DNA of 18,421 bases from Promethearchaeota archaeon (lineage in GTDB: Archaea; Asgardarchaeota; Lokiarchaeia; Sigyniarchaeales; SOKP01), in NCBI GenBank assembly GCA_048938445.1, contig JBHLME010000089.1:1-18421 (forward strand), in the 5' to 3' direction. Shown in pieces: positions 166-12,204 of the stretch (the first letter of the stretch is position 1; every line of letters starts with the position of its first letter). The notes below the pieces were generated by a model. The model ran no database searches and had not been told where the DNA came from. It saw nothing but the letters and a program-made list of their open reading frames with translations. The translations under genes were made by a program, and so were the position numbers.

Positions 166-795
166 TTATTTATATATATTATCGAGACCATTAATCATGT
201 TTATGCGAGTCTGGTTGAATCCTTTTCTTAATGTCCTCATCAAAATTGTTTTACCCGTAGGAATTTTTAAAACTGATAAATCTTCTTCAATAATTTTTAT
301 ACTCTCATCTGTAAATTCTAACTGTCTAAGTAATACTTCATATGCTTCTTCTTTAGTTTTAAAAGCCGCTCTGATTAAGCTATCATAATCCTCGATATGA
401 TCTCGAACATTTAATAATAATATTGATTCTTCTATTTGTGAGATAAATGCTAATTTCACGATATTTTTTAATCTCTTAAAATTTTTATGGGTTTGCTTAC
501 ATTGTCGATATACTTGATCCCCTTTTAAATAATTATTAAAATTTTGCTCCACGACTTCATTAAATTTTACTTTTGAACCATTGCCATTGAGGCACAAATA
601 TTTTCCACAATCTAAAGTAGTTTTGATCTGCAAGAGAGTTCCTTGTCTTGCATCATTATTTTTCCAATAGTTATAGAAAGATTTTATCACTGGTTTCACG
701 ATAACATCAAGGACTCCTAAATTTAATTCAGTATCGATTAATTCATTCCCAAATTCAAAAGCATTTTCCATTACATCAATCATTTTTTGTTCCAA
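166..795 (-). CDS. Hypothetical, predicted alpha-helical soluble protein; start uncertain
   Basis: 209-codon ORF with normal protein composition and no recognised motif. The frame stays open upstream to 840, and an out-of-frame ATG lies at 844-842. Confidence 0.8.
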   Translation of the reverse strand: MEQKMIDVMENAFEFGNELIDTELNLGVLDVIVKPVIKSFYNYWKNNDARQGTLLQIKTTLDCGKYLCLNGNGSKVKFNEVVEQNFNNYLKGDQVYRQCKQTHKNFKRLKNIVKLAFISQIEESILLLNVRDHIEDYDSLIRAAFKTKEEAYEVLLRQLEFTDESIKIIEEDLSVLKIPTGKTILMRTLRKGFNQTRINMINGLDNIYK

Positions 796-996: not shown

Positions 997-3900
997 ATGC
1001 GTTATGTGTTTAAATTATTGTGTTTGGGAGATCCTGAAATTACTATACAATATGTGTCATCAGCTCTAGAGGAAATGGGTGACTCTAAAGAAACCCATAT
1101 TGAATGGTTCACGGAATTCAATGTTTTAGACAATGTGTGTGACTTAGAAATTGACATCATTACTGATCTTATTTCCGCGGAGTTTGACGAAATAATTCCT
1201 AGCGTAGATGGGATTATTTACTTTTTAAATCCTATAAATGAAGAAGAATTAACTTTCTTCAAAATTATCCTTCCAATTATAATGTCTGTAAAACGTGACA
1301 TTCCAACTATCATTTTATTCTATGATTCGGGAGGGATCATTCCTCATTCTACTAATAGATTATTGGAAGACATTTGGGTTAATTATCCCAATCTTGAGGC
1401 ATTTATCAATCTTGCTCCAAATCAATTTCATCAAGTTTTGCAGTGTATTTGTTTAGCAATGATAAATGGGGATACTCCATTAAATATTGAGAATGCTTGG
1501 ATGCGTTTTCCAATATTTATTCAACTAGCAAATTTTTATTTTGAGAATAAGAACTATTATTATGCTGCTCAAGCTATAAAAAATTTAGCAAATATAGCGG
1601 AAATATATGAAAAACAAGAATATTTTGTATATAGTGAACAAGCAGCATTTCTTTTTTCAAGATTAGGTCTATTTTTAGAAGCTAGTAAAGTAATTGAAAA
1701 GGTAGATCCAAAATTATCATACCTTTTTAAAAAAAGTTATGCTGAAACAATGATCGTTGAAGGAAATCAGCTTTTTAACAAAAATAAATATGAAAATGCC
1801 GCTATTCAATATGAAAGTGCTGGTCAATGGGCTTCAATTGAGTTAGGCGATAAAGAAATTATCAAAACCTCATTTGAATTAGCAATTAATTCTTGGATTT
1901 CTGCCTGTAAATGTGAGAAAGGTTTTTTAATTCTTGAAAGGCTACCGCATGAAAATATCAAAACTATATTGACAAGTCTCTCGGATAAAATAATTGCTGC
2001 TTCAGATTTTTTAATTTCTATTGGAAATTTATCTGCTGCTAAAGATCAATTATATTATTCCGTTTTTACTTATCAAAAAGAAAGTCTTTTTGAAGATTTA
2101 AAAAAAATTGTGTTAAAACTCTTAGAAGTTTTGAGTAAAATATTCGATATATCAATTCAAAAAAAAGAAATATATGAAGCAAAGTTTACCTATGACGAAA
2201 TAGAAAATATTTGGGAAACATTCAACATAGAAAAAACGAACCTAGACAGTAATTTAGAAATCTTGATTAAATTATTTGTAGATAAAATGAATCTTAGTAT
2301 GGCTTCAGCTCTGATTAATAAATTAAATTCTTTAGAATTAAAGAAAAAGTTAACGAAATACAGCTCAAAAATTGAAGAAAAAACGAAAAAAATTGAAAAA
2401 CAAGAAAAAGAAGATATAATAAAAAGAGGTATTGAAATTTTACAAGAATTCATCAAGGCAGAGCATGATATTATCGCTAAAATTAACATCCAAACCTTAA
2501 CAGAAGCAAATGGATTTATAGTACAAAATGATTGGTTAAAAGCTGCAACACATATTAAGCTACAGGCAGATTTTCTCCGGGAAATAGGAAAAGAGGATAT
2601 CGAAAATCAAATTTTAACAAAATCTTTAGATATATTGCTAGATGGTGAATTATTTGATAATTTTTTTAAATATTTTAAAAACTTAGATGAGAACATGAAA
2701 AAAAGTTATCTTACTCAAGTCTTTCCAGTCTACATTGAAAAACTAAAAACAATTAAAGAGAAGCAAGAACCTGAAAGTCCATTTAAAATTTTTGAAAATT
2801 CAATTTTAATATTTCGAAATCAAGAACTCTATGAGGAATCTAAGGAAATTGTTTCTTTATATATAGAAGTACTGAAGAAAGAAAGCATGAATATTATACG
2901 TGAAGAAGAAAACGAATATGGAATTGAAAAAGCAACAGATTTGATAAAAAAAATTTTAGACATTTCGTCCGCATATTTAGATAATATTACAATAAATTTT
3001 GATGAAATCTATAAAGCAATTTCGGAAATTTATCTTTATAAGATTGATGATCTTTCCTCAGCGCTCGCATATAACGATAAAATTGAAAATAAAGAAATTA
3101 AAATTGAGATTCATAAAAAAATTGCTAAAATTGAAGCCAAAAAAAGTGCTTCAATTATGAAAGCTGCAAGGAAATCTACAAGAGAAGCAATGTTAGAAGA
3201 AAGATTTTCAATTATAGAACAAAAAGCTGAAGATGCTTTGCGAGATCAAGAAAATGAACTAAAGCAAAGAATTGGTTTTAAACGTGCTTACTTTAATGAG
3301 CCTCTAATTTATTTAAAAATAAGAAAATTTGATGATGCAATTGATTTATATTTAGAAAGCATGATAAATTTAATAAATATAAAAAAGTATTATCTTTCAA
3401 GTGTATCATTTGCACTAGCCTGCCTATTACTTATAATTAAAGGTAATTTTGATAAAATTAACAGAATTTTGGAGGAAAGAGAAGCTTCTTCATCAAGTAA
3501 ATTATTTTTTGAAACATTTCCTGTAATATTAATTCAATTTCTCGTTGAGATTTATAATTTCAACGATAAATCTAAATTTCCTAAAGCATTAGCATTAATG
3601 AAAAATTTACCCTTATTCGAAGAAGAAAAAATGATTCTTGATGAATTCGTTAAAGAAGAGTTTGAAGGAGAAGATATGAAAAGGGAGGAAGGGATGATAA
3701 AAAAATCTAAAGGAAAAAGCGAAAAACCTCAAGATATAATGGAAAAAGTTGAGTTAGAACAGATCTTTAGTAAACTTCAGCAAAAAATGGTAGATACTCG
3801 CATAGATTCAGATAAAATTTTAAAAAAGCGAAAAGCAATGCGAAGACGTTATTATGATAATATTATTAATTCATTAGAAACGAATTCTTTTAATGAAGCT

Positions 3901-4221
3901 GCAGAAGAATATTATAATTTAGCTAACAACGCAGCAAAAAGGAAAGATTTCAATACTAGCGCTTTATCAATATTATTATATGGATTATCATTACTAAAAT
4001 CAAAAAGATCAATTATAGAGATTGAAAAAGATATTGAAAAATATTTAGATACTTTAGGTTTAAATAAGACCTTAGTCAGAGATACGTTTGAAATTAGTTT
4101 GATTCTATCTATTATTAGGGTAAAAAAAAAGGAAATCTTTGATTATGATTATAAAATAAAAGAAATGTTAAGCATCTTACCACTATTCGAGGAAGAAAAG
4201 AAACTTATTGTAAATTTTTAA
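997..4221 (+). CDS. Large protein: degenerate Ras/Rab-like N-terminal domain, TPR/SNAP-like alpha-solenoid, and duplicated C-terminal helical domain
   Basis: N-terminus YVFKLLCLGD...DGIIYFLNP...RDIPTIIL follows the small-GTPase strand pattern but lacks GKT/S, DxxG and NKxD. TPR-like helices occur downstream (KYENAAIQYESAGQWA, SFNEAAEEYYNLA). Two C-terminal segments both end in LPLFEEEK. Confidence 0.75.
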   Translation: MRYVFKLLCLGDPEITIQYVSSALEEMGDSKETHIEWFTEFNVLDNVCDLEIDIITDLISAEFDEIIPSVDGIIYFLNPINEEELTFFKIILPIIMSVKRDIPTIILFYDSGGIIPHSTNRLLEDIWVNYPNLEAFINLAPNQFHQVLQCICLAMINGDTPLNIENAWMRFPIFIQLANFYFENKNYYYAAQAIKNLANIAEIYEKQEYFVYSEQAAFLFSRLGLFLEASKVIEKVDPKLSYLFKKSYAETMIVEGNQLFNKNKYENAAIQYESAGQWASIELGDKEIIKTSFELAINSWISACKCEKGFLILERLPHENIKTILTSLSDKIIAASDFLISIGNLSAAKDQLYYSVFTYQKESLFEDLKKIVLKLLEVLSKIFDISIQKKEIYEAKFTYDEIENIWETFNIEKTNLDSNLEILIKLFVDKMNLSMASALINKLNSLELKKKLTKYSSKIEEKTKKIEKQEKEDIIKRGIEILQEFIKAEHDIIAKINIQTLTEANGFIVQNDWLKAATHIKLQADFLREIGKEDIENQILTKSLDILLDGELFDNFFKYFKNLDENMKKSYLTQVFPVYIEKLKTIKEKQEPESPFKIFENSILIFRNQELYEESKEIVSLYIEVLKKESMNIIREEENEYGIEKATDLIKKILDISSAYLDNITINFDEIYKAISEIYLYKIDDLSSALAYNDKIENKEIKIEIHKKIAKIEAKKSASIMKAARKSTREAMLEERFSIIEQKAEDALRDQENELKQRIGFKRAYFNEPLIYLKIRKFDDAIDLYLESMINLINIKKYYLSSVSFALACLLLIIKGNFDKINRILEEREASSSSKLFFETFPVILIQFLVEIYNFNDKSKFPKALALMKNLPLFEEEKMILDEFVKEEFEGEDMKREEGMIKKSKGKSEKPQDIMEKVELEQIFSKLQQKMVDTRIDSDKILKKRKAMRRRYYDNIINSLETNSFNEAAEEYYNLANNAAKRKDFNTSALSILLYGLSLLKSKRSIIEIEKDIEKYLDTLGLNKTLVRDTFEISLILSIIRVKKKEIFDYDYKIKEMLSILPLFEEEKKLIVNF

Positions 4222-5343: not shown

Positions 5344-6603
5344 ATGTCAACCAAAATTGATAACGTTATTACTCAGTTTACCAAATTTTTAGATACTTCT
5401 TTGATGAAAGTTAAGAAGTCTAAAACTATTGAAGATCTTTTGAAGTTACCCATCTCATGCTTTTCATTTATGAATAAAAACGAGGTAAAGATCATTGAGG
5501 ATTTATTTGAAGTATTTGATATTAGTGAAGCTGCTAATTTAAATAAAATAAATCCATTCGAAAAATTTTTATCAGTAGATCAAACTGAAGATCCCATCAA
5601 AGACAGTCAAATGAGAGAACAACTTGAACAGAAAATTGAAGAACTAAAACATAAATACCCAAATTTAGAAAGAAATTTAAAAAAGATGGCTACGATAAGT
5701 TCAATTATTAATTCCGTTTCAAACATTCCTGAGGAAACAACCAAGTGTCAACAAAAAGTTGTAGTTGTGGGATTAGATAATGCTGGAAAGACAGCAATAT
5801 TAACTAAATTTGGAGGGCGGTTAGGAATTAATGATCTAGCCAAATTAAAACCAACTAAAGGTATTAGTCGCAAGAAATTTAAATCTGATGATTTAGAACT
5901 AGTTGTATGGGATTTTGGAGGTCAAGAACAGTATCGAAAAAAATATTTAGAAACACCTGAACAATATTTCCTCCAATTAAACTTATTAATTTATGTAGTT
6001 GATGTTCAAGATCCTGACAGATTTGAAGAATCCATGGAATATTTCGATAAAATTCTTGATACAATTTATTATTTAGAAGAAAAACCGTACATAATGATTT
6101 ACATTCATAAATATGATCCTGATTTAAAGACTGATCCCGAGATTTTACTTAATATTGAATTATTAAAAGATAAATTGAACGATATTATTCAAGAGAAACA
6201 TACAGAATTTCATTATGAAATTTATTTAACTTCAATATTTTCTCTTATATCTACGGAACCGAGATTTTCAAAGTATATAAAGGATATAATGAGTACAAAT
6301 ATATCTCTTTCTGATCCCGTGCTTAAAAAAGTAGAAGGTTTGGGTAAAATCTTAGAAGAAACAATGAATGCAATAATAAGATTATCAGAAAGCACCTCAT
6401 TACAAATTAGAGAGATAGATCATCGTTTAAGGGCAATAGAAAGCGGTGCCGTTCAAGTTGGACAAGTTAATCAAACAGGTGCACCAATGGGAATGAACTC
6501 TTCTATTCCGCAGCAATCTATTACAAGAGAAGATAATATGAGAGCAAATGTATTGGATGAGCTAAAAATATTGTTTAAAAAACAAAAAAGATTAGAACTT
6601 TAG
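5344..6603 (+). CDS. Multidomain small GTPase (Arf/Rag-like) with about 135-aa N-terminal extension and C-terminal coiled coil
   Basis: G1 GLDNAGKT, G2 PTKG, G3 WDFGGQ, G4 HKYD, G5 TSIF. The stop codon overlaps that of the convergent PAP2 gene by 4 bp. Confidence 0.92.
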   Translation: MSTKIDNVITQFTKFLDTSLMKVKKSKTIEDLLKLPISCFSFMNKNEVKIIEDLFEVFDISEAANLNKINPFEKFLSVDQTEDPIKDSQMREQLEQKIEELKHKYPNLERNLKKMATISSIINSVSNIPEETTKCQQKVVVVGLDNAGKTAILTKFGGRLGINDLAKLKPTKGISRKKFKSDDLELVVWDFGGQEQYRKKYLETPEQYFLQLNLLIYVVDVQDPDRFEESMEYFDKILDTIYYLEEKPYIMIYIHKYDPDLKTDPEILLNIELLKDKLNDIIQEKHTEFHYEIYLTSIFSLISTEPRFSKYIKDIMSTNISLSDPVLKKVEGLGKILEETMNAIIRLSESTSLQIREIDHRLRAIESGAVQVGQVNQTGAPMGMNSSIPQQSITREDNMRANVLDELKILFKKQKRLEL

Positions 6604-7334: not shown

Positions 7335-7730
7335 TTAATAGACTTCCATGATTTTTTCAATGTAATTATTAATATTTTTAAATATCTCATCTACCTTGGA
7401 TTCATCACCAACAAAAAGTACTATAAAAGCATTTTTATGACAATCTAATATAATTACGGATTGATCCTCTAATTCAGTTATTATTTTGTCCAAATATGTT
7501 TCAGATACAGTGTTCATGAGGTCTTCAGCACTATCAATTACAGAAGCCGTCATAGCACTGAATTCATTTGCTTCAAAATTCTGGTCAAATACTTTCGAAA
7601 TTAAGTTTCCTTCGCGAGATGAGAGCAAAACTCCTTGTAAATTCCCACTTTCTTTAATTTCTGTTAAAATATATTCGATTTTTTTAAGATTAAATCTTTT
7701 ATTCGAGTTGCTACTATGCATTCTATTCAA
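7335..7730 (-). CDS. Roadblock/LC7 (MglB/LAMTOR-like) domain protein
   Basis: About 120-aa pattern: helix, GVLLSSREGNLI beta-hairpin, FSAMTASVIDSAEDL helix, three strands (KIITEL/SVIILD/AFIVLFV), final helix. Ends 12 bp before the PAP2 start, so a probable operon. Confidence 0.9.
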   Translation of the reverse strand: MNRMHSSNSNKRFNLKKIEYILTEIKESGNLQGVLLSSREGNLISKVFDQNFEANEFSAMTASVIDSAEDLMNTVSETYLDKIITELEDQSVIILDCHKNAFIVLFVGDESKVDEIFKNINNYIEKIMEVY

Positions 7731-9328: not shown

Positions 9329-9868
9329 TTGATTTACATTCAAGACGTTCTATTCAAGATTTGCATATTTGGAGATGGTGGTGTTGGTAAGACCACATTG
9401 TTGAATAGATATCTCACAGGATTATTCACAGAAGATTCTGGCATAACTATTGGAGTAGATTTTCACTTAAAAAAAATTACAATGGATGAGAGAAGAGTCT
9501 CATTACAAATTTGGGATTTTGCTGGAGAGGATAGATTTAGATTTCTTTTACCAAGTTATTTAATGGGTGCATCTGGAGGAATTTTTATGTTTGATATAAC
9601 GAGATATACAAGTTTAACGAATTTTAAAGATTGGTTAAAAGTTGTTGAACAAGGAACACAAAATCAAAGAGAAAGTATACCTATACTAATGGTTGGAAGC
9701 AAATTAGATTTAGAACATAAAAGAGCTGTTCCTATGGAGGATGCAATGGAAATAGCTAAACAAAATGGATTATATGGGTATGTAGAATGCTCCTCTAAAA
9801 CAGGTCAAAACGTAGAAGAAATTTTCATAGAATTAACCAAAGAAATGATCAGAAAAGCTAATCTTTAA
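9329..9868 (+). CDS. Rab-like small GTPase
   Basis: FKICIFGDGGVGKTT, TIGVDF (RabF1), LQIWDFAGEDRFR, GSKLDL, ECSSKTGQNVEEIF. TTG start; no C-terminal Cys tail. Confidence 0.95.
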   Translation: MIYIQDVLFKICIFGDGGVGKTTLLNRYLTGLFTEDSGITIGVDFHLKKITMDERRVSLQIWDFAGEDRFRFLLPSYLMGASGGIFMFDITRYTSLTNFKDWLKVVEQGTQNQRESIPILMVGSKLDLEHKRAVPMEDAMEIAKQNGLYGYVECSSKTGQNVEEIFIELTKEMIRKANL

Positions 9869-11415: not shown

Positions 11416-12204
11416 TTAATTTGATAGACGACGATCTATAAATTCATCTATTAAACTCAAGTCATACTTACTTAATCTTGGAATTCTCAATTCTTTAGCT
11501 ATTAATTTTAACATGTCTTTTTTTGAGATACTATCATCGTGTTTCATTATATTATTTGCATTTTCTGCTCTAAGGATGAAATTTTTTATTTCTCTTTGAA
11601 TTAATTTTACCTGCTCTGTTGGATTAAATATCTCTAGAGCTTTTTTAATGAGATCCTCTTCAAACTTTACTTTGTTTTCCCAAGGAATATTTAGAATCTT
11701 TTTCTTAGCATCAATTAAAAATGTCTCATGATGATCTTCTGTTTTTAGTTCACTTCTTTTAATTGATTTAATAACCTGTTCGGAATCCCTATACTTGCTA
11801 GGAATTATTGCATCACCAATAGTTTTCAGAACCTGTACTATGTTTTCAGAAGCATCATCATAAACAAAACCTATTGGGTAATTGAATATTCTGGCATGCA
11901 TCAAATATGATGCACCATCAAAACCAACTAATTCCAAAGCATAATTTAAAGTAAGCTGCTCAGGTCTTTGAAATTTCTCTTGCTCTTGTCCATTAGAAGT
12001 TCCCATTAACAAATCAATTCTTTCATATCCTCTTACATGTCCTTGAGTATCTATGAATACGATGAATCGGTGTTTGTTGCATGCTGCTCCTGAAGGAACT
12101 TCAATTTTAAAAATACCGAATTTCTTTTGAGAGAGAATCTCATCTGGAATACTGATTTTGCTCTCACTTTCACAAAAGGGGCATTTAACATCAACGTCTC
12201 TCAT
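11416..12204 (-). CDS. Hypothetical protein with N-terminal Zn-ribbon-like domain (CxxC...CxxH)
   Basis: CPFC...CNKHRFIVFIDTQGHVRGYERID, a pattern I recall from Lokiarchaeia hypothetical proteins; helical C-terminus. Confidence 0.8.
   Translation of the reverse strand: MRDVDVKCPFCESESKISIPDEILSQKKFGIFKIEVPSGAACNKHRFIVFIDTQGHVRGYERIDLLMGTSNGQEQEKFQRPEQLTLNYALELVGFDGASYLMHARIFNYPIGFVYDDASENIVQVLKTIGDAIIPSKYRDSEQVIKSIKRSELKTEDHHETFLIDAKKKILNIPWENKVKFEEDLIKKALEIFNPTEQVKLIQREIKNFILRAENANNIMKHDDSISKKDMLKLIAKELRIPRLSKYDLSLIDEFIDRRLSN

Follow-up and report, generated by a model that had tools for sequence, protein, structure and literature searches.

How would a protein work whose first 160 residues resemble a Ras/Rab-type small GTPase without the motifs for holding a nucleotide? 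The question is raised by a gene in an 18,421-nucleotide stretch of DNA from a Promethearchaeota archaeon of the class Lokiarchaeia (contig JBHLME010000089.1 of assembly GCA_048938445.1; the whole stretch that was analyzed is referred to as the window). The gene, taken from the list of open reading frames and its translation, occupies positions 997..4221 of the forward strand, encodes 1,074 residues and has no second copy in its genome (completeness 96.5%, contamination 8.2%); G+C in the window is low, at 0.21–0.32 per kb. A preliminary description, made from the letters alone, had called positions 997–1467 a catalytically dead Rab-like domain heading a 900-residue solenoid. That range corresponds to residues 1–157, and the predicted domain, here termed the head, reaches to about residue 160 (997..1476, forward strand). 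Collectively, the computed fold, motif loss, conservation pattern, architecture and distribution suggest that the protein is probably a nucleotide-independent pseudoGTPase head of the class-i type, derived from the Ras/Rab lineage and carried on a tetratricopeptide repeat (TPR)-like platform, a reading that draws on sequence comparison and on structural models.

Predicted fold and ancestry of the head

AlphaFold2 (AF2) modeling of residues 1–168, using a head alignment (A2) of the window protein and 56 sequences thinned by hand from 78 recovered N termini (57 rows, mean column identity 70%), gave a model with a predicted local distance difference test (pLDDT) score of 90.0 and a predicted template modeling (pTM) score of 0.88. 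The model contains, in order, β1 (2–10), α1 (13–24), β2 (34–43), β3 (46–55), α2 (63–69), β4 (72–77), α3 (82–97), β5 (104–108), α4 (119–129), β6 (134–137) and α5 (141–157). This is the order of elements in small GTPases of the Ras type, the antiparallel β2–β3 hairpin included, and the model thus displays the six-stranded sheet, the hairpin and the five helices that define the G-domain fold. When the head model was searched against the Protein Data Bank (PDB) with Foldseek, no fewer than 500 matches reached E ≤ 0.001, and the best 50, which are the matches listed, are all Ras, Rab or Rap proteins, with template modeling (TM) scores of 0.62–0.74 and sequence identities of 11–18%; HRAS was matched at E 1.6e-7 with a TM score of 0.71, and Rab8 with a TM score of 0.74. 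A second structure search likewise gave P-loop GTPase domains throughout among the 50 matches listed, with Arf6 (13.5), MglA (13.4), RagD (13.1) and Sar1 (12.5) scoring 2–4 units lower. Across both searches, the identity of the head to the matched chains is 4–18%. In addition, the nearest neighbors of residues 1–165 in a protein language model are Ras, Arf, Rab-like-5 and Miro clusters (0.89–0.94), and the 10 best named neighbors all belong to one clan; this is a lead, yet an independent one. The Ras/Rab-like G-domain fold proposed for residues 1–160 in the preliminary description is thus what AF2 predicts, and the Foldseek check led back to the same branch of GTPases.

The head was also compared at the profile level with active GTPases of the same genome. 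The comparison alignment (A3) has 17 rows, consisting of the canonical Rab of the window (9329–9868) and 16 of 17 paralogues picked by script from the 30 best matches to PF00071; the script asked for a P-loop, DxxG and NKxD, and its position or motif filter removed 13 of the 30. Alignment of A2 with A3 by hhalign gave a probability of 87.5% and an E-value of 3.6e-6 over 104 columns, pairing FKLLCLGD with FKICIFGD, VDGIIYFLNP with ASGGIFMFDI and IPTIILF with IPILMVG, and setting the VGKTT of the Rab against a five-residue gap in the head. Three pairings with the window Rab that had been made by eye (those beginning FKLLCLGD, DGIIYFLNP and IPTIIL) fall in this same register. As controls, A2 aligned at 0.08% with the unrelated family of a neighboring 209-residue protein and at 0.73% with the neighboring Rag/Arf-like family. 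The idea that the head is a decayed copy of that Rag/Arf-like GTPase gene (5344–6603) was rejected on the latter value (E 0.077). The head therefore shares its fold, secondary-structure order and alignment register with active Ras/Rab GTPases of its genome such as 9329–9868, from which it differs by a deleted P-loop, the lack of all five G motifs, the absence of a PF00071 match and fusion to a giant scaffold. The window Rab matches PF00071 at E 2.9e-47, and the genome holds 94 PF00071 matches, the head not being one of them.

Conventional family searches gave little. No Pfam family matched residues 1–188 at E ≤ 1, the Ras, Arf and Roc models included, and the whole 1,074-residue protein drew only two sub-threshold matches, TPR_2 (E 0.28, residues 250–275) and HTH_71 (E 0.88). 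NCBIfam gave no match for the protein, phmmer against PDB sequences found only two esterases (E 1.4), and a full-length profile against the PDB found ribosomal protein bS20 alone (E 0.03 and 0.36), which we take as chance. A HMMER profile of the head, searched against 1.84 billion representative proteins, gave 48 matches at E ≤ 0.001; the 18 inspected comprise 17 of the family and a single unrelated repeat protein, and the other 30 were judged, by length and matched range, to be family members or fragments. The unrelated protein (P0165, 397 residues) carries six repeats of the type VYFLNPDGTEK and was matched at E 1.5e-5 through the strand-4 motif only, a chance match.

Loss of nucleotide-binding motifs and conservation of the family

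The phosphate-binding loop is where the head departs most clearly from its presumed relatives. In the AF2 model, G11 and D12 alone lie between strand 1 and helix 1, and the P-loop remnant (residues 11–13, G-D-P; 1027..1035) falls short of the Ras-family length by about five residues, as judged from the model and from hhalign. The preliminary description had the P-loop replaced by PEIT. That the canonical P-loop is lost stands; the change is a shortening by five residues rather than a substitution, given the hhalign gap and the β1–α1 spacing. The loss extends to the most divergent members, which are ~24–32% identical overall to the window protein.

A motif census, taken over 145 family proteins whose head is complete, bears this out. 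Neither GxxxxGK[ST] (G1) nor GK[ST] at any position occurs in a single head (0/145 for each), and this was the outcome of the proposed check of P-loop conservation among homologues. [NT]KxD (G4) is found at any position in five heads and SA[KL] (G5) in seven. DxxG does occur somewhere in 120 of the 145 heads; however, 117 matches lie at one fixed site 51 residues before the junction motif, as YDxxG after strand 5, which is the G4 site. The end of strand 3, the expected start of switch II, has none, and the remaining matches are scattered, with no more than three per place. The claim that DxxG and NKxD are missing is thus borne out for the switch II DxxG and, apart from the five heads, for NKxD. 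In the window protein itself, the head reads D57-L-I-S at the G3 site; strand 5 is followed by F-Y-D-S and strand 6 by N-L-A-P. The same motif patterns were found in 17, 17 and 16 of the 17 rows of A3, a circular control in that A3 was selected for them. As judged from the sequences, then, G1, G3, G4 and G5 are lost family-wide, and sequence and model together suggest that the head is catalytically dead. A GTPase fold free of G motifs is one mark of a class-i pseudoGTPase, the other being the biochemical one that nucleotide is neither bound nor hydrolyzed (PMC12490416). The first is what sequence and model give for the head, which would then be nucleotide-independent.

The head is nonetheless no decaying relic, since no other part of the protein is as well conserved as it and the adjoining junction. 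A homologue search scored 8,000 candidates and gave 256 proteins at E ≤ 0.001, 120 of them listed; the listed relatives that bear organism names are all from Asgard archaea, mostly Promethearchaeota or Lokiarchaeota, and four rows carry just the label "hypothetical protein" or "TPR repeat protein." In a full-length alignment (A1) of 47 proteins chosen by hand from 121, with identities taken over 1,081 pairs, mean pairwise identity is 0.60 for the head and 0.88 for the junction (residues 161–176, PLNIENAW motif; 1477..1524). The junction value is the highest in the protein, which elsewhere ranges over 0.47–0.60: the first helical module stands at 0.57 and the other modules at 0.47–0.50 (0.49 for residues 446–694). 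P161, N163, E165 and W168 are invariant among the 57 sequences of A2. In a broad set of 35 sequences, D71, W127 and W168 are invariant and N163 is 97% conserved, and F5, L8, G11, G72, Y75, P79, P103, E134, N163 and P172 are conserved at 90% or more. Conservation of this strength, seen here in sequence, argues for a retained noncatalytic role of the head.

The helical scaffold and competing explanations

The preliminary description had a solenoid of about 900 residues following the head, and the full-length AF2 model (pLDDT 84.5, pTM 0.40) is indeed all-helical from residue 167 to the C terminus. The first TPR-like helical-repeat module (residues 177–440; 1525..2316) is modeled together with the head at a pLDDT of ~90. 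In the full-length model it is followed by a long helix (446–509) and a second helical-repeat module, together spanning residues 446–694 (2332..3078). The C-terminal part consists of two copies of a further module, copy 1 at residues 699–890 (3091..3666), a long helix with a helical bundle, and copy 2 at residues 911–1074 (3727..4218), both ending in LPLFEEE and recognized by BLASTP and in the model (E 4e-9, 29% identity over 160 residues). Long connecting helices lie at 446–509, 699–760 and 911–947. Between the two copies runs a charged, low-confidence linker (residues 891–910; 3667..3726), and residues 888–911 are disordered in the model, with pLDDT below 50. Relatives fall into length classes of ~1,070–1,100 and ~1,240 residues, the difference being one module of ~170 residues after residue 892 of the window protein, i.e., at the linker, and a 1,410-residue relative has two extra modules. 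The window protein thus has two copies of the C-terminal module and its relatives two to four. The number has changed at least six times in a maximum-likelihood tree of 35 members (first 900 residues), in which a three-module relative is the tree neighbor of the two-module window protein.

The resemblance of these modules to TPRs holds at the level of the repeat. TPR_2 is matched at E ≤ 1 by 20 of the 35 members, with a best E-value of 1.1e-6, and Foldseek of the full model returned Ski3/TTC37, Ctr9, TPR subunits of intraflagellar transport complex A, Naa15 and subunits of the anaphase-promoting complex at E 4e-7 to 2e-4; TM scores of ~0.1 for these matches denote likeness of the repeats only. 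Likewise, long TPR scaffolds and SNAP proteins show only a generic helical-repeat likeness to this protein (TM ~0.1; γ-SNAP alignment with a root-mean-square deviation of 34 Å), with no sign of a specific kinship. From residue 167 to its end, the protein is, by model and sequence, a TPR/α-solenoid scaffold.

With these two parts in hand, the protein can be set against known systems. CENP-M, which we take to be a eukaryotic class-i pseudoGTPase, offers one comparison. According to the part of the report available to us, the N-terminal pseudoGTPase domain of AAGAB has a GTPase fold, neither binds nor hydrolyzes nucleotide, binds the σ subunits of AP1 and AP2 and is assigned to class i (PMC12490416); pG1 and pG2 of p190RhoGAP are described, in text seen in excerpt, as pseudoGTPase domains (PMC5593906). 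Like class-i pseudoGTPases, the archaeal head combines the canonical G-domain fold with absence of the G-motif residues, and theirs is a protein-binding module in or beside a larger scaffold. Unlike the eukaryotic examples, it is archaeal, has no detectable sequence relation to them, does not find them among the structure matches listed and is fused to ~900 residues of TPR-like repeats. The dynein light intermediate chain has a Ras-like domain that, in the accessible portion of its description, bridges a large partner and the cargo-binding region (PMC4359372). It shares the Ras-like fold, its own domain being a structural bridge, but differs in its flanking architecture and gave neither a sequence match nor a listed structural match.

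In architecture, the likeness is to the large subunits of complexes named TRAPP (transport protein particle). Trs85, in the sections of its structural report at hand, has a nucleotide-free GTPase-like fold, with several insertions and with a helix lying in the nucleotide site, followed by an α-solenoid (PMC8204860), and the same arrangement is given, again in partial text, for Trs120 and Trs130 (PMC10152722). The archaeal protein resembles Trs85/TRAPPC8, Trs120/TRAPPC9, Trs130/TRAPPC10 and TRAPPC11 in having a GTPase-like head and then an α-solenoid, and in architecture only. In the TRAPP subunits the solenoid docks on longin-type core subunits. Unlike that of Trs85, the head here is a compact 160-residue G domain, and unlike the large TRAPP subunits the protein has no immunoglobulin-like C-terminal domains, ending instead in repeated helical modules. 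The closest kind of protein is thus the class-i pseudoGTPase and the closest architecture that of the TRAPP-specific large subunits.

These comparisons lead to the following proposal. The head (residues 1–160) would descend from a small GTPase of the Ras/Rab type and would have kept its fold, a loss of some five residues having removed the phosphate-binding loop, and the motifs of switch II, NKxD and SAK having disappeared as well. Because of the deletion and the motif loss it would not switch between GTP and GDP, which would make it a pseudoGTPase of the class-i type. The head would then offer a fixed docking surface, always in the "on" shape, the helical modules would provide multivalent binding sites, and head and modules may jointly hold other proteins in place. 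With the P-loop and motifs lost and the head set on a long helical scaffold, a binding platform is most likely, not a switch. We infer that the head binds no nucleotide, that it serves in docking and that it has protein partners. The preliminary description had suggested, as a possibility, a heterodimer of the head with an active GTPase or a roadblock protein. A more specific version, in which the head is a GTPase mimic of fixed shape that occupies or organizes GTPase regulators of the longin or roadblock type on the TPR platform, as an independent or ancestral equivalent of the subunits that direct TRAPP exchange factors in eukaryotes, appears improbable to us.

Several observations weigh against the proposal of a class-i pseudoGTPase platform. 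The analysis identified no partner, and the docking role is itself deduced. The G-domain fold is a prediction. In sequence, BLASTP finds no significant match between the head and the window Rab (best E 2.2), so that the likeness rises above chance only for profiles and predicted structure, although the two best BLASTP segments do fall in the register of the preliminary description. The HMMER head profile tied the head to no GTPase among the 1.84 billion representative proteins. The hhalign probability of 87.5% is suggestive and not decisive, the 17 comparison rows having been selected by script for intact G motifs. Lastly, the nearly invariant D110 aligns, in a weak and nonsignificant hhalign alignment, with the guanine-specificity aspartic acid of the HKxD of the neighboring GTPase, and sequence conservation thus makes a residual ligand site at the head possible.

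That last point is the core of an alternative in which the head still binds a nucleotide or small ligand in a noncanonical way, as class ii and iii pseudoGTPases do, and still senses something. Besides the D110 alignment, it can call on the near invariance of D110 and G113 after strand 5 among 47 sequences, G113 being conserved at 90% or more in the 57 heads, and on the 117 DxxG matches at the D110 site across the 145 heads. We nevertheless hold it to be very unlikely, as the phosphate-binding loop is absent, leaving two residues between β1 and α1, no Lys/Ser/Thr pair is present (GK[ST] 0/145) and no DxxG follows strand 3. Still less credible, and the least so of all, is that the G-domain call is an artefact of a generic three-layer α/β fold resembling GTPases: identities to matched chains of merely 4–18% would allow it, but the class-typical antiparallel β2–β3 hairpin is present, and the profile–profile register, the language-model neighbors and the structure searches concur as three independent lines. 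Somewhat better placed, though unlikely, is a head without an external partner, which would only cap the solenoid or nucleate its folding, all binding falling to the helical modules. Conservation peaks at the junction (0.88), and co-modeling of head and first module at pLDDT ~90 fits conservation arising from an intramolecular interface. However, in sequence the conserved positions spread over most head elements (β1, β2, β3, α2, β4, α3, α4, β6 and α5) and do not mark one face.

The remaining alternative takes the architectural likeness at its word: the protein would correspond in archaea, by homology or by convergence, to the large TRAPP subunits and would regulate or target a complex for GTPase exchange or tethering, as one of its subunits. 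The same domain order and "dead" head described, in the text available, for Trs85 (PMC8204860) and for Trs120 and Trs130 (PMC10152722) speak for it, as do the 94 Ras-family matches in the genome and at least one above-cut-off match to the longin-type Sybindin family (PF04099, 30.1 bits). Nonetheless, no Pfam TRAPP family was found for the 1,074-residue protein at E ≤ 1, and neither a TRAPP nor a GTPase family is among the 25 most-matched of the 66 Pfam families matched by the 35 members. In the 96.5%-complete genome, Bet3 (PF04051) has no match at E ≤ 0.01, although the control genomes, all of them prokaryotic, were also without one, and Sedlin (PF04628) has none at E ≤ 0.1. Two structure searches with the full model returned no TRAPP large subunit among the 50 matches listed for each, an absence that tells neither for nor against kinship; the places were filled by GTPases and generic TPR proteins. 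Moreover, the family does not extend beyond one order of Lokiarchaeia, with none among the 247 other genomes of the phylum searched, and so narrow a distribution favors lineage-specific invention or convergence over TRAPP kinship. On sequence grounds, membership in the TRAPP large-subunit family is not supported, and we regard the whole alternative as improbable. The only above-cut-off Sybindin match of the genome (G000:C191:4497-4808, reverse strand) lies within a 373-residue frame, whose product is therefore probably a fusion.

Gene neighborhood, distribution and significance

The locus set was built by scanning one genome per prokaryotic species, which gave 105 stretches encoding the protein, of which 80 were kept as loci; the N terminus was recovered in 78, one of the others being cut by a contig end and one missed by the search pattern. 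The most persistent neighbor is a gene for a 209-residue protein (166..795, reverse strand), divergent from the scaffold gene in the window and with a homologue in 76 of the 80 loci, upstream and on the opposite strand in all rows inspected. Homologues of the other neighbors are found in 73 loci for transcription factor B (TFB), 66 for the Rag/Arf-like GTPase and 57 for PAP2. As the neighboring genes alternate in strand, they do not form one operon. The 209-residue protein belongs to an unnamed family restricted to Lokiarchaeia, with no Pfam or NCBIfam match and only unnamed bacterial clusters in the ESM Atlas, and its gene is tandemly duplicated in many loci.

A roadblock/LC7 gene (7335–7730, reverse strand; E 2.6e-5, just above the cut-off) and the canonical Ras/Rab GTPase gene (9329–9868, forward strand) lie less than 6 kb from the scaffold gene. 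As conserved neighbors, both were rejected: the roadblock has a homologue in 2 of the 80 loci, and the Rab in 5, only two of which are close (57 and 77% identity). Since both are rare in related loci, their closeness here is not a conserved linkage. The neighboring Rag/Arf-like gene (5344–6603, forward strand) encodes a 419-residue GTPase (Arf E 3.9e-23, Gtr1/RagA E 2e-21) with an intact P-loop and DxxGQ, and with HKYD where NKxD is expected; it is extended by ~130 residues at the N terminus and has a helical C-terminal tail of ~120 residues. It stands beside TFB in 66 of the 80 loci, and not in the family f3 described below. A 262-residue protein encoded at 11416–12204 (reverse strand) matches the Brz zinc ribbon weakly, at 19.3 bits (E 0.0017), and so falls short of the cut-off of 27.9 bits.

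Across the phylum, 143 of 400 genomes match the scaffold gene, its own genome counted. Its own genome aside, the matches comprise 142 of the 153 genomes of one Lokiarchaeia order, distributed over its families as 125 of 134 (f1), 1 of 1 (f2), 14 of 14 (f3) and 2 of 4 (f4). The gene was found in none of the seven genomes of the other families of the class (f5–f7) and in none of the remaining families of the phylum, 247 genomes outside the order in all; incomplete genomes may conceal copies. Two orthologues (G140:C225:2786-6502 and G134:C200:3578-7276) carry one in-frame TAG, for which a sequencing error, a pseudogene or recoding may account. The family of the 209-residue protein reaches more widely than that of the scaffold, with 147 of 153 genomes in f1–f4 and 6 of 7 in f5–f7.

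In family f3, a homologue of the 209-residue protein lies 1.5–3.3 kb from the start of the scaffold gene, on the opposite strand, in four of four genomes. A small gene and a gene for a putative winged-helix regulator separate the two; in the four loci (L120–L123), the intervening genes encode a conserved protein of 129–156 residues and one of 188–238 residues that gives the impression, from its sequence, of a double winged helix. TFB, the Rag/Arf-like GTPase and PAP2 were not found in the 20-kb stretches of these four genomes. An "undead" ancestor of the scaffold was sought beside homologues of the 209-residue protein in four stretches from f5–f7 (7.7, 11, 10 and 13 kb), and no scaffold-like gene was found there. 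In f5, the homologue of the 209-residue protein adjoins a conserved protein of 420–452 residues (L116 3133-4491, L117 6679-7941). The 209-residue gene thus does not depend on the scaffold gene for its presence, and its protein is a candidate partner by neighborhood.

Asgard GTPases have been examined in several studies. PseudoGTPase domains are known as eukaryotic binding modules, and the text available gives their occurrence as "from bacteria to human." A search for literature combining "Asgard" with "pseudoGTPase" or "pseudo-GTPase" found none, and the sole paper found with "Asgard" and "GTPase-like domain" concerns, in the portion available, eukaryotic TRAPP. The accessible text of three studies of Asgard GTPases (PMC10933270; bioRxiv 10.1101/2024.02.28.582541; 10.64898/2026.10.28.762692) names no such protein, though their supplements may list it. 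Neither Pfam nor HMMER profiles reveal the family, so that a count of Asgard small GTPases based on sequence would pass it over.

If the platform reading holds, the expansion of the Ras family in Lokiarchaeia, which has left about a hundred Ras-family genes per genome in the host order, would also have yielded a "dead" derivative, conserved, single-copy and near-universal within one order, that forms part of a giant scaffold. This would be the same evolutionary move as that seen in eukaryotic TRAPP, AAGAB and p190RhoGAP. Should the partners of the scaffold turn out to be GTPase regulators, the protein would make the organization of GTPase networks before eukaryotes open to test; should they be of another kind, it would still represent a new and well-defined archaeal protein family.

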